In this document: piece after piece, positions 12,001 through 15,000 of the stretch
Position numbering within the stretch: the stretch's first letter is position 1
Layout: every line of letters begins with the position of its first letter
Assembly (NCBI RefSeq): GCF_057098645.1
Contig: NZ_CM169472.1
Length of the DNA stretch: 64,000 nucleotides
Strand: one strand, 5' to 3'
Program-made: the position numbers

Positions 12001-15000
12001 TTCAAAGGGGATTGAGCGCCAGATGACCGAAGGGGAATTAAAACGGCTTGCAGAACGGCAACTGACGAAATGGGCAAAGCATGTTAGTAACGGCCTGAGC
12101 GTTCCGCCAGTCCGGCGACAACTGGCGGCCCCCAAACGCCCGTCGGGGCCAACGCCAATTGAGTTGCTGAAACAGGAATATGAACGCCGGAAAGCGGCTG
12201 GTTTTGTATGAATTGTGAAGGTGATATTTCAGGAGGGCTTGTGGCAAGACCTTACACACAAGAAGAGCGGGAAAAGCTGAAGGCGGACATTGTAGCTTTC
12301 GTGCGTATGAGTGGGCGGGCAACGCTTCAGCAACTGGCGAATGAAACGGGCGTTGCCATGCGTACTGTTCGGTGTTTATGTGGAAGCCTTGCTGGCAGTG
12401 GAGATATCTGGCTATCTGGTTACGGGGTGTTTTCATCAGAGCAGGCGCGTAAAGACTGGCAAAACGCCCGCAAAAAACTTTCAAGGGCAAAGGCGAAGAA
12501 ACCGGTTGTAGTTGATCCGGACCTTATCTGGTCGTTACCAGACGGAGAAATACGCCGATACGACAGGCGTCAGAACATAATCTGTCGCGAGTGCCGGAAG
12601 AGTGAAGCTATGCAGCGTGTACTGGCTTTCTATCAGGGTAATTTTCATGAGACGGTACTGTGAGTGAAATTAGCTATCAGGCTTCAATTACCGCTGGCAT
12701 TCGCATCAAAGGAGAGGAGCATGGAAATAAAACCAGAAGATGAGTTAAGCAATATCGTTTTATTTCCGGTAAAAGAGGATGACCCACGTAATCAGGTTAA
12801 TTTTCTCTATGAGCCATCGGAAAGACCATATTGCCATCACGCCTCTGTCCGGGTTGACGAAAAAGAGCGTCAGGTCCGCTGTAAAATCTGCGGTGCAGTT
12901 GTGGAGCCATTTGACTGGATGCTCTCTGTGGCGAAAAGAGAAACCAGACTGGCAGATGATGTAAGGATCTTGCGCCAGGAGGAACGGGAAAGGCGGAGAA
13001 ATATAGAAAAGCTAATTCAGATTGAGCGTAACGTGAAAGCGCGGATACGCAGGGTGACAAAATCCAGAACTGAATAATTAATTTTAGCTCTGTTAAAAAT
13101 TTAATCCTTAACCGGAGGTATATCAATGTCAAACGCACAGAAAGTTATTAACGCTGAAAAATATAACGAGTGGGTGAAAAAGTTCTCAGAGCAGATTTTT
13201 AAAATTACTGGCGACGAGAATGCGGCAAAAAATGAATTAGAGCCGTGGACGCCTGAAGGTGTCGACCCAAATTATTGCTGGTGGGATGTTGATCCAGTTG
13301 ATGCTGCAAATGAAGCTATGAGTTATCACAACGATTAATGTCAGGAGGCCGCCCGAAAGGGCGGTAATGAAAAGTGACTGAATTAACCAAAGAGAAATTA
13401 ATCGAAGAAGCCAAATTAAAAATAGCGATTGCGAAATGCTACCCCAATTCAGGGATGGCACGGGTAGAGGGCGAGTTATTCAAAATTGCACTGGCATCGC
13501 TGGAAGCAGAACCAATAGGTGCTTTCCACATTGTAGAACAGCAAGTTGACGGAACAAGTTACTATATCAAGGATGGGGAATGGCCTATTGATACTGGGAT
13601 TATTGAAGTCTACGCCGCCTCACCGATGACGGTAGTGCTGAACGATGTATCTGGACCTCTTGCTCTTGCTTACAAAGAGCTTACACCTGCGATTATGCGC
13701 AACCATATCGCTGTATTCGAACGATACGGAATAACCCCAAACGATAGCATTACTACAATTCATGCGCTTCGAATTGCGCTGGATGGCATAGAGCGGAGCG
13801 ACGCCATGCTTCATGGACGTCAGCCATGCCATCAAATTACCGCCTCAATGGCAAAAGCTATTGCGCTTAAACTTGGTGCCGAACTGAATAACGAAGAAGC
13901 AGAGATTTTCGCGGATGGGTATAACACCGCCATGCTTCATGCCGAAAACTTTCGGGAAAATAAGAATTCGTCAACCAATAATTTTCGGATAACCTCGGAA
14001 ACGTCAACCAACTCTCCGGCAATCCCTGATGAGGTGTTGTCCGCAATCCTGAAGGTCGCCAGGGTTCGTGCAGATTTCGATGCTTCTGAAGGTGACAGGC
14101 GAGGTATCGGTGGTTGTCTGGATGAGGCCGAGCAAGAACTTATCGTTACCATTAACAAATACGCCAGTCAGATCGCAGTAGAAGCGATACAGGGGGCGCA
14201 CCAATGAGCCGGCCCGATGCATTTGCAGGCGTTGCTATAGCTATTGCTTTTCTAGTATATGTTATTTGTCGGTGGGGGTAAAAACGTTCGCCGGAATTCA
14301 CACCAAGGGAGGGAATATGTCGGATGATATTTCACTGGTAATGGAAGGCGCTCTGGCTGTTATTGCTGTTGTGGGTGTTTACTGCCTGGTTGTGTTTTTG
14401 ATGGATCGCCTGGGGAACTGAATTCATTCCGTATGGGAATTCCCATATCGGGCAAAAACGGTTTGCTGTAAAGCGAGAGTTAAGTAGAATTGCTGCGGGT
14501 GCTTGAGGCTGTCTGCCTCGGGCATGCCGCCGTAAGGCAGACAGAGAAAAGCCCCAGTTAACATTACGCGTCCGGCAAGACGCTTAACATTAATCTGAGG
14601 CCATATCTATGCGACACATAGAGATTAGCCTCTTACGGACCGAAAGGTCAAGGAGAAGCAGGCTATGAAGCAGCAAAAGGCGATGTTAATCGCTCTGATC
14701 GTCATCTGTTTAACCGTCATAGTGACAGCACTGGTAACGAGGAAAGACCTCTGCGAGGTGCGAATCCGAACCGGCCAGACGGAGGTCGCTGTCTTCACAG
14801 TCTACGAACCTGAGGAGTAAGAGACCAGGCGGGGGAGAAATCCCTCGCCACCTCTGATGTGTCAGGCATCCTCAACGCACCCGCACTTAACCCGCTTCGG
14901 CGGGTTTTTTGTTGTGCAGCGTAGTTGATTAGCTTTTTGTGTACTCCTTTGGTTGTGGTTCTTGAGGGGCCGTTTGGAGTAAATAGAATCATATTACTTA

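Follow-up and report, generated by a model that had tools for sequence, protein, structure and literature searches.

The window, a stretch of 64,000 nucleotides from contig NZ_CM169472.1 (assembly GCF_057098645.1), represents a Qin-like defective lambdoid prophage and is at this locus 99.9% identical to E. coli O145:H28 RM12761. Between a Ren-like DUF977 gene and hok it carries the four open reading frames that the initial annotation had marked, here ORF1, ORF2, ORF3 and the gene of a 34-aa peptide, and a fifth conserved reading frame of 25 aa that was not listed there (Table 1). The four coordinates proved correct, and each frame is more than a chance ORF, as judged from phrog_1621, phrog_4659, 6589 homologues and WP_001278459.1, respectively. 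Minus-strand ORFs overlapping the block (e.g. 12797-13138) were rejected for lack of support; the homology evidence is all on the plus strand. All database names for the block genes are 'hypothetical' or 'unknown function', which agrees with their description as uncharacterised.

Table 1. Features of the DUF977-to-hok interval and its surroundings in the window.
Feature	Coordinates	Strand	Evidence or remarks
Left flank, DUF977 / Ren-like gene	12208..12663	+	phrog_142 'Ren-like exclusion protein', E=3.2e-39; PGAP: DUF977 family protein
Relic of Ea22-like gene 3' tail	12666..12743	+	Frame 3 reads EISYQASITAGIRIKGEEHGNKTRR and stop; read from sequence
ORF1, 118 aa	12721..13077	+	phrog_1621; zinc ribbon; relatives; structure model
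ORF2, 70 aa, acidic, pI 4.36	13126..13338	+	phrog_4659
Shine-Dalgarno AGGAGG (13343-13348) and stable hairpin (13348-13365) ahead of ORF3 GTG	13343..13373	+	
ORF3, 277 aa, GTG start	13374..14207	+	PHROG matches to separate segments; homologues; alignment
ORF3, N-terminal helical hairpin	13374-13514	+	
ORF3, module B	13515-13814	+	
ORF3, optional insert	13815-13940	+	
ORF3, conserved linker (NFRENKNSSTNNFR..)	13941-14009	+	
ORF3, module D	14010-14189	+	
ORF3, five shared tail codons and stop	14190-14207	+	
Unannotated 25-aa hydrophobic peptide (MSRPDAFAGVAIAIAFLVYVICRWG)	14204..14281	+	Allele series, substitution pattern
34-aa hydrophobic peptide (AAGGGAGGG), strong Shine-Dalgarno	14317..14421	+	PGAP WP_001278459.1
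Right flank, hok/sok locus	14497..14820	+	Rfam sok model RF01794 14497-14667, 105.9 bits; hokD CDS 14665-14820 (PGAP)
IS3-family element	15125..16434	-	blastn of window vs RM12761; annotation

ORF1 is a member of phrog_1621, a broad phage family of zinc ribbon plus helix proteins listed as function unknown, whose HMM it matches at full length (E=1.7e-54 over aa 1-117). At its N-terminus the protein is disordered and has the motif E.ELSNVV.FP; a CxH...CxxC zinc ribbon follows at aa 36-61, and aa 63-117 form one long basic helix. The zinc ribbon, put forward as putative in the initial annotation, is supported by the Pfam model Zn_Ribbon_TF (2.6e-4) and by the AlphaFold model. The CxH...CxxC motif is invariant in relatives from Kluyvera, Erwinia, Yersinia and Pluralibacter that are 47-69% identical, and together with a following helix containing L.R.E.N.KAR it is conserved in 109 distant members of phrog_1621. 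Distant relatives are located between P and RusA/Q in other lambdoid prophages, and a functional annotation was not found for them. A Foldseek search with the ORF1 model returned only a generic TFIIB-type zinc ribbon from the PDB (E=0.22) and only 'bacteriophage/uncharacterized protein' entries from AFDB50. A putative likeness of the N-terminal ELSNVVxFP motif to clamp-binding motifs is not claimed. The name LygF was rejected for ORF1; in some phage records this label belongs to the DUF977 gene.

The short Ea22-tail relic before ORF1 also serves as its Shine-Dalgarno region and as a conserved module boundary. The same ...GIRIKGE tail closes several unrelated upstream genes in related loci. Homology to other contexts starts at 12692/12693, with 12693 as the first position for a P22-like locus, Stx phages and strain 06-00048. 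In some phages the ORF1 sequence is the C-terminal domain of an Ea22-like protein, as in the Ead_Ea22-ORF1 fusion proteins P0122 and P0125. Among the relatives of ORF1, PF13935 is carried only by fusions (P0122, P0125 and P0163). ORF2 matches phrog_4659 (function unknown) from end to end, with aa 1-70 on profile positions 1-70 of 70 (E=3.7e-50), and belongs to this family; its homologues were found in Escherichia and Shigella only.

ORF3 belongs, as a mosaic protein, to the large 'Eaa / DUF551-containing' family and represents a widespread DUF551-less C-terminal variant. Most of its 6589 homologues have PF04448, as do the best full-length relatives, which show 54-91% identity over 81-98% of ORF3. 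ORF3 is thus homologous to DUF551 family members in their parts outside the DUF551 domain. The domain itself (...PDGWISCSERMP...WMPLPEPP) was found neither in the Pfam scan nor in the alignment, and the initial statement that ORF3 has no recognisable domain is literally true, the Pfam result being empty. The DNA homology to a full-length DUF551 gene ends at 14189, where ...AVEAI is joined straight to the last five codons (C-terminus ...GAHQ). The DNA breakpoints are sharp, at 13617/13618, 13815/13928 and 14189/14190. A one-off decay product formed by in-frame deletion of DUF551 was considered and dropped, since the same ending and an identical micropeptide occur with a different modular protein, of 187 aa, in O157:H7. 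The ending and the identical 25-aa peptide thus form a widespread allele that is combined with other N-terminal modules in O157:H7. In O145 genomes PGAP labels ORF3 as a fragment of a pseudogene, annotated as partial; it would be better described as an allele of the Eaa mosaic family without DUF551. An AlphaFold2 model built with 77 homologues had a pLDDT of 46 and was confident only for aa 1-45; this low-confidence model was left out of the fold search.

Upstream of ORF3, the Shine-Dalgarno/hairpin element is retained before all MTELTKE-type alleles, and the start codon that is GTG in the window reads ATG in sister alleles. The hairpin separates the Shine-Dalgarno sequence from this start codon and has a fold energy of -17.4 kcal/mol (z = -3.6). 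It was rejected as a tR2-like or intrinsic terminator because a U-tract does not follow it on either strand.

The fifth reading frame starts with an ATG that overlaps the ORF3 stop codon (ATGA). It encodes an allele of a 27-aa family, M(I/T)WPEAF...ICRWG, with a 2-aa deletion in the window. The overlap is present in all ten nucleotide alleles of the micropeptide, whatever C-terminal module lies upstream, and the peptide, a putative membrane peptide, is predicted to be translationally coupled to ORF3. Substitution patterns (pS 0.75 vs pN 0.24, and pS 0.25 vs pN 0.03, in this frame only) indicate that the family is under purifying selection. A scan of PHROGs, the only library used for the 25-aa peptide, returned no family. 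The 34-aa peptide has a GRAVY of 1.40, and its two alleles differ by 5 synonymous vs 1 non-synonymous change. It has no PHROG family and no NCBIfam model, and nothing significant was found in PADLOC, where the sole match was at chance level (Cmr5, E=0.022). Segment 14186-14430 occurs in 673/5426 complete E. coli genomes. A second small membrane protein usually comes after the micropeptide.

Between the Ren-like DUF977 gene and hok lies a hypervariable slot, which belongs to the early-right operon of Qin/933-type lambdoid prophages. Its variability, suspected in the initial annotation, is confirmed by at least 15 architectures of the ORF1-to-hok interval in 80 related loci. Besides alternative cassettes with small acidic proteins, other cargo includes a Mom-like DNA-modification protein and a protein with an HNH domain that is weakly PtuB-like, a generic HNH match only. 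MT-A70 methylases are present in adjacent early regions. One gene order is conserved: DUF977, ORF1, ORF2, DUF551 protein, micropeptide, 34-aa peptide, hokD, DUF968, RusA, Q, an order kept in O157:H7, in other strains and in one induced viable phage. In intact relatives, DUF968, RusA and Q thus come after hok, so the initial placement of the block at the usual position of nin genes and Q was inaccurate. The genes also occur in early-left operons. In a P22-like early-left operon, an Ead_Ea22 gene is followed by homologues of ORF1 and ORF3 side by side, near the anti-RecBCD gene abc2, and the plaque-forming Stx phage ArgO145 has homologues of ORF1 and ORF2 between two Ea22-like genes. Shuffling of the cassettes proceeds through recombination at boundary sequences that are short and conserved, namely the ...GIRIKGE tail over the Shine-Dalgarno site of the next gene, the NFRENKNSSTNNFR linker and the Q-stop/ATGA joint with the micropeptide. 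The slot provides a clear case of such shuffling in EHEC prophages.

The block as a whole is rare and its parts are common. Among the 5426 complete E. coli genomes that were counted, coverage of at least 80% was found in 11 only and pieces in 2645. Proteins identical to the block ORFs each occur on at least about 1000 contigs. The four ORFs are real. They are common and already known accessory early genes that undergo shuffling in lambda-like prophages of E. coli. The initial reading is supported for uncharacterised genes in a variable slot. It is not supported in taking the block for something undescribed, since ORF1, ORF2 and ORF3 each belong to a family already on record (phrog_1621, phrog_4659 and the Eaa/DUF551 mosaic, respectively), nor for the nin/Q position or for defence cargo, which is discussed below.

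In this prophage the nin-type genes and Q were lost through an IS3-associated deletion. The IS3-family element, with an ALIL pseudoknot at 15983-16099, stands in place of 2.65 kb that in RM12761 contain DUF968, RusA and most of the antiterminator Q. Another insertion sequence, IS21, lies upstream in the same operon. For the near-identical prophage of RM12761, the annotation lists the integrase gene as a pseudogene. Because of the upstream IS21, the deletion of Q and this integrase pseudogene, the block genes are probably silent passengers in this particular prophage.

Comparison with known systems gives partial likenesses. The ORF cassettes are of the same kind as those of the exo-xis or 'ea' region of lambda, P22 and Stx phages. 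Both consist of non-essential early genes with extreme mosaicism and swappable C-terminal domains, and both have modules of acidic character and N-terminal parts that are helical or form coiled coils. Ea22-like genes are direct neighbours of homologues of ORF1, ORF2 and ORF3, and the relic tail (IRIKGE...) precedes ORF1. Ea22 itself is a mosaic protein with swappable C-terminal domains that favours lysogeny (PMC7093339, PMC10834534), and ea22 and nin genes are dispensable (PMC10695390). The Ea22 protein is a tetramer. However, Pfam scans of ORF1, ORF2 and ORF3 did not detect the Ead_Ea22 signature (PF13935, IPR025153; a segment at the N-terminus together with a coiled coil in the middle), so for ORF1 and ORF3 Ea22 is an analogy and does not imply membership. 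The three proteins also lack the terminal K/RGE motif of Ea22 (PMC7093339), ending in ...KSRTE, ...YHND and ...GAHQ, and the motif is found only in the relic frame. Furthermore, the cassette of the window lies in the early-right operon after the replication genes and not between exo and xis, and a pro-lysogenic phenotype is established only for Ea22 itself.

With DUF551 (PF04448) prophage proteins such as Eaa, YfdS of CPS-53 and Ea22 variant V2, ORF3 shares the N-terminal hairpin, central modules, linker and module D, as well as the stop-codon context and the coupled micropeptide, but not the DUF551 domain. The lambda nin region (ren, ninB to ninI, Q) is likewise placed in the PR operon, downstream of a Ren-like gene and of replication genes of the O/P type, and it is similar in its dispensable, tightly packed genes with overlapping start and stop codons. 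Yet homology of ORF1-ORF3 to NinB, NinG/Rap, RusA, DUF968 or Q was not found in PHROGs, NCBIfam or Pfam, as the initial annotation had judged by eye for NinB, NinG and Q, and the true nin-type genes lie beyond hok. In size and hydrophobicity, small type I toxins (Hok/Gef, Ldr, TisB and similar) are comparable to the peptides of 25 and 34 aa, which are located immediately upstream of hok/sok. However, neither peptide matched Hok/Gef or any other family in PHROGs, nor did the 34-aa peptide match NCBIfam or, significantly, PADLOC, and the 25-aa peptide is coupled to a protein gene instead of being under an antisense RNA. Rfam detected no antisense RNA family over either peptide; its sok model matches only the hokD region. 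The prophage sRNA svsR was rejected as relevant here, as it lies within cI.

Sequence and fold searches yielded no function for the block. ORF1, ORF2 and ORF3 matched no defence model in PADLOC-DB v2, the NCBIfam search of the four initially marked ORFs was empty, and PDB sequence searches with the three proteins and one DUF551 domain gave nothing significant. An enzymatic or NTPase domain was not found in the block proteins. Plus-strand promoter and terminator motifs were not detected in 12210-14880, with a scan that is insensitive, as the hok promoter was also left unflagged.

In view of the above, the block is best explained as one arrangement of a hypervariable accessory slot that probably encodes dispensable early phage proteins tuning development and not a defence expressed in the lysogen. 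Its molecular role is inferred from position, architecture and the analogy with Ea22. Production of the proteins would be confined to times of derepression of the early-right promoter PR. They would then bind host or phage proteins and thereby tune development, possibly by biasing the lysis-lysogeny decision, as reported for Ea22, or by contributing to host takeover or counter-defence. They would be neither enzymes nor defence systems of the lysogen. The Mom-like alternative cargo points towards phage-serving functions rather than host defence.

The initial annotation had instead proposed defence or superinfection-exclusion cargo, in which small membrane peptides and partner proteins shield the lysogen from incoming phages. 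A hypervariable slot between conserved genes, next to a Ren-like 'exclusion' family gene and the hok/sok toxin-antitoxin locus, does look like a defence island, and three small hydrophobic peptides in a row (25-aa, 34-aa and Hok) and the weakly PtuB-like cargo would fit this. We nevertheless consider it distinctly unlikely, as the window ORFs matched no PADLOC model, the alternative cargo is only generic HNH, and the proteins are small and devoid of enzymatic or NTPase domains. The micropeptide is predicted to be coupled to an early gene, and viable phages of the Stx and P22-like kinds carry the same genes within early lytic operons, in Stx phages the early-left operon. Since the insensitive scan found no internal promoter, the block would rely for its expression on the early-right operon, and the repression of this operon speaks against a defence role in a lysogen.

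A somewhat better case, though still a rather unlikely one, can be made for counter-defence or host takeover by small early inhibitors of host defence systems or enzymes, in which, for example, the acidic ORF2 could inhibit a target or mimic DNA and ORF1 could bind a host protein through its zinc ribbon. The early-operon position, the small size and low pI of ORF2 and of the alternative acidic cassettes, the proximity to abc2 in the P22-like locus, and the Mom-like protein and neighbouring methylases are consistent with this. So is the fast turnover of cassettes in the slot, and rapid turnover is typical of counter-defence loci. Against it, neither sequence nor fold searches revealed homology to characterised inhibitors, and ORF1 is conserved over many genera, unlike a narrowly targeted inhibitor. 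That the genes are non-functional relics, decaying in a dead prophage with ORF3 as the pseudogene that PGAP labels, appears very improbable. The prophage is indeed defective (IS21 and IS3 insertions, Q deleted, integrase pseudogene in RM12761), ORF3 is without DUF551 and annotated only as a partial pseudogene, ORF1 has an internal stop in one sister strain and the window micropeptide has lost two residues. However, none of the five reading frames is disrupted in the window, the DUF551-less ending with its identical peptide is widespread and joined to other modules in O157:H7, substitution patterns reflect purifying selection on the families, and the same genes are found in viable phages.

The Eaa-type modular protein may, together with the membrane peptide of 25-27 aa, make up a hitherto undescribed module targeted to the membrane, an idea that we regard as unlikely and that is based on the invariable ATGA coupling of the peptide to the modular protein, whichever C-terminal module is present. 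If true, different partners could be recruited or sensed through the variable 'head' domains, and the module could serve in superinfection exclusion, in counter-defence or in controlling when lysis occurs. These early genes may also influence the induction of Stx-type phages. Neither 'nin/Q' nor candidate defence island is a suitable label for the block, and the practical value of the analysis lies mostly in annotation. The gap there is a conserved 25-27-aa membrane peptide that is coupled to these genes and absent from standard annotation: it is rarely called by annotators, and about 12% of the complete E. coli genomes have it.

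An ORF scan bore out the four ORFs placed by the initial annotation between the Ren-like DUF977 gene and hok, here ORF1 to ORF3 and the 34-aa peptide, together the block. Positions 12600-14500 share 99.9% identity with E. coli O145:H28 RM12761, where the counterpart lies in a prophage that adjoins potC/cobB and carries dicB, ydfA, ydfB and ydfC, and is therefore Qin-like. The PGAP order in RM12761 is a DUF977 family protein, hypothetical proteins of 118 and 70 aa, a partial pseudogene, a hypothetical protein of 34 aa and hokD; the pseudogene, 'DUF551 domain-containing', covers just the final 288 bp of ORF3. 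At least 80% of the whole block was present in 11 of 5426 complete genomes, and pieces of it in 2645.

Features of the block and its surroundings in the window
Feature	Position	Strand	Description
IS21-family element (istA/istB)	7624-10258		insertion in early-right operon, compared with RM12761
Ea22-like gene 3' tail relic	12666-12743	+	frame 3, …AGIRIKGEEHGNKTRR then stop; read in the 57 bp directly before ORF1
ORF1	12721-13077	+	118 aa
ORF2	13126-13338	+	70 aa
Hairpin GCCGCCC-GAAA-GGGCGGU	13348-13365	+	between AGGAGG and ORF3 GTG, element 13343-13373
ORF3	13374-14207	+	277 aa, GTG start
25-aa hydrophobic ORF	14204-14281	+	MSRPDAFAGVAIAIAFLVYVICRWG, unannotated; ATG overlaps ORF3 stop (ATGA)
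34-aa peptide	14317-14421	+
hok/sok locus	14497-14667		Rfam sok model
Terminator-like hairpin	14889-14906	+	downstream of hok
IS3-family element	15125-16434		with ALIL frameshift pseudoknot; replaces 2.65 kb of RM12761

As families without an assigned function, the genes of the block were described before. The whole of ORF1 aligns with phrog_1621 (E=1.7e-54), and Pfam adds a weak match to a TFIIB-type zinc ribbon (2.6e-4). Its AlphaFold2 model (mean pLDDT 74.8, above 90 in the helix) is disordered at the N-terminus (aa 1-35), folds into a small zinc ribbon over aa 36-61 and continues as a single long helix (aa 63-117); a Foldseek search of this model against PDB and AFDB50 yielded nothing more specific than generic zinc ribbons and entries named 'bacteriophage protein'. 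Close relatives are found only in Enterobacterales. Clustered at 50% identity, the small proteins (about 100-140 aa) gathered by a profile search form 1105 groups with the common core C38-x-H40…R50…C54-x2-C57…DPFD…L.R.E.N.KAR, and all distant members tested belong to the same function-unknown PHROGs. One of these lies in a lambdoid prophage with lambda-P/MT-A70 on one side and RusA/Q on the other, another directly after Mor in a Mu-like phage. ORF2 (pI 4.36) matches phrog_4659 (E=3.7e-50) and gave no match in a Pfam scan; its homologues, every one named hypothetical, occur only in Escherichia and Shigella.

ORF3 is a mosaic of modules whose boundaries were drawn from alignment and DNA comparison: an N-terminal helical hairpin (MTELTKE…ALASLEAEP), the sole confidently modelled part, a central module B, an optional 42-aa insert, a conserved linker (NFRENKNSSTNNFR…) and a module D. 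Separate segments match PHROGs (aa 1-93, aa 66-152 and aa 184-273), and a Pfam scan of ORF3 itself gave no match. Most of its 6589 homologues carry PF04448 and are named 'DUF551 domain-containing protein' or 'Eaa'. Homology to the full-length gene P0016 ends exactly at 14189 and the final 18 bp match the last part of the DUF551 gene in O157:H7, so that the linker and the DUF551 domain are missing in frame. Decay as the origin of this ending was dropped, since a 187-aa protein of O157:H7 genomes has this DUF551-less ending behind different N-terminal and central modules, its gene followed by a 25-aa ORF identical to that of the window, which makes the ending an established allele rather than a one-off lesion. 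The GC-rich hairpin in the ORF3 leader (-17.4 kcal/mol, z = -3.6) is kept in front of MTELTKE-type alleles. It may, speculatively, bring the Shine-Dalgarno sequence nearer the start codon, which lies 25 nt from AGGAGG; a terminator was ruled out, as there is no U-tract.

Only one item is modestly new: a micropeptide, missing from the annotation and translationally coupled to ORF3, that starts at the ORF3 stop. Related loci carry 27-aa alleles, M(I/T)WPEAF…ICRWG, and the ATGA overlap with the preceding modular gene is found in all ten alleles recovered, whatever C-terminal module lies upstream. Comparison of alleles gave pS 0.75 against pN 0.24 and pS 0.25 against pN 0.03, and in the other two frames pN was similar to or larger than pS. 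The codon pattern indicates that the family is under purifying selection, and the ORF is a genuine gene that is seldom annotated. Alleles of the 34-aa peptide differ by five synonymous changes and one non-synonymous change. Of the 5426 complete genomes, 673 have the segment with both peptides, in up to five copies each.

The initial annotation had the block where nin genes and Q usually sit, which is contradicted by intact relatives (O157:H7 strains, strain 06-00048 and the induced phage vB_EcoS-640R1). Their order is DUF977, ORF1, ORF2, DUF551 protein, 34-aa peptide and hokD, then DUF968, RusA and Q, which puts the nin-type genes and Q beyond hok. Homologues also occur in other settings. A P22-like contig has the order cIII, kil, …, abc2, DUF2737, Ead_Ea22, ORF1 homologue, 327-aa DUF551 protein, …, xis, int. 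The early-left operon of Stx phage ArgO145 holds, in this order, Ea22-like gp18, gp17 (an ORF1 homologue), gp16 (an ORF2 homologue), two small acidic proteins and Ea22-like gp13. An Ead_Ea22 protein of some phages carries the ORF1 sequence fused to its C-terminus (P0122, P0125). The Ea22-like relic upstream of ORF1 overlaps its Shine-Dalgarno sequence, and its IRIKGE tail corresponds to the 'K/RGE' terminus of Ea22 proteins (PMC7093339). The same tail also terminates several unrelated genes in related loci of the slot, the variable interval between DUF977 and hok. It is probably a module-boundary recombination sequence, and short common joints of this kind are the likely recombination points.

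It is well supported that the block is an ordinary set of early accessory genes from lambdoid prophages, widespread and heavily recombined, and that these genes are related to the exo-xis/'ea' cassettes. These cassettes are dispensable in lambda (PMC10695390), and Ea22, their best-studied member, biases development to lysogeny (PMC7093339, PMC10834534). In the preferred mechanism the block products would be early-expressed, protein-binding modulators. The interpretation in the initial annotation, a hotspot position with candidates for anti-phage defence or superinfection exclusion, holds only as far as the slot is indeed a variable one filled with genes of unknown function. In 80 IMG/VR loci with ORF1, the distance from ORF1 to hok varies from 1.16 to 3.3 kb, with at least 15 architectures. 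Further small acidic proteins (phrog_1997, phrog_519) are among the alternative cargo, as are a Mom-like DNA-modification protein, an HNH nuclease and unknown-function proteins; loci L033, L046, L057, L075 and L083 supply examples (Mom-like phrog_1384, HNH endonuclease, a 171-aa phrog_9263 protein, and a 72-aa two-helix membrane protein that stands in for the 34-aa peptide). This cargo matched no defence systems, and defence or exclusion by the block genes, an unlikely reading, is supported neither by homology nor by expression context. The most plausible alternative to accessory early modulators would be a counter-defence role.

A crude scan of the + strand from 12210 to 14880 gave no promoter-like or terminator-like site. 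The IS21 insertion lies at the start of a YdaT-family gene (compared with RM12761), upstream of the replication genes and the block. The segment replaced by the IS3 copy contains, in RM12761, a hypothetical gene, DUF968, RusA and most of antiterminator Q, and because most of Q was replaced late transcription is impossible for the window prophage. In the near-identical RM12761 prophage, the annotation marks the integrase gene as a pseudogene. In the crippled prophage of the window the block would be silent. The ORF1 copy of sister strain Z1323HEC0399 (L002, 6463-6819) is annotated with an internal stop, and the block is thus decaying in some lineages. After hokD, a sub-threshold Rfam match to isrK (14829-14910, +, 30.5 bits, E=0.0016) ends in the terminator-like hairpin. 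Further downstream, Rfam matches to the STnc100 sRNA (17365-17554, +, 147.8 bits) and to the anti-GcvB sRNA AgvB (17555-17616, -, 96.5 bits, overlapped by a weaker AsxR match) lie upstream of a SASA-family esterase gene.
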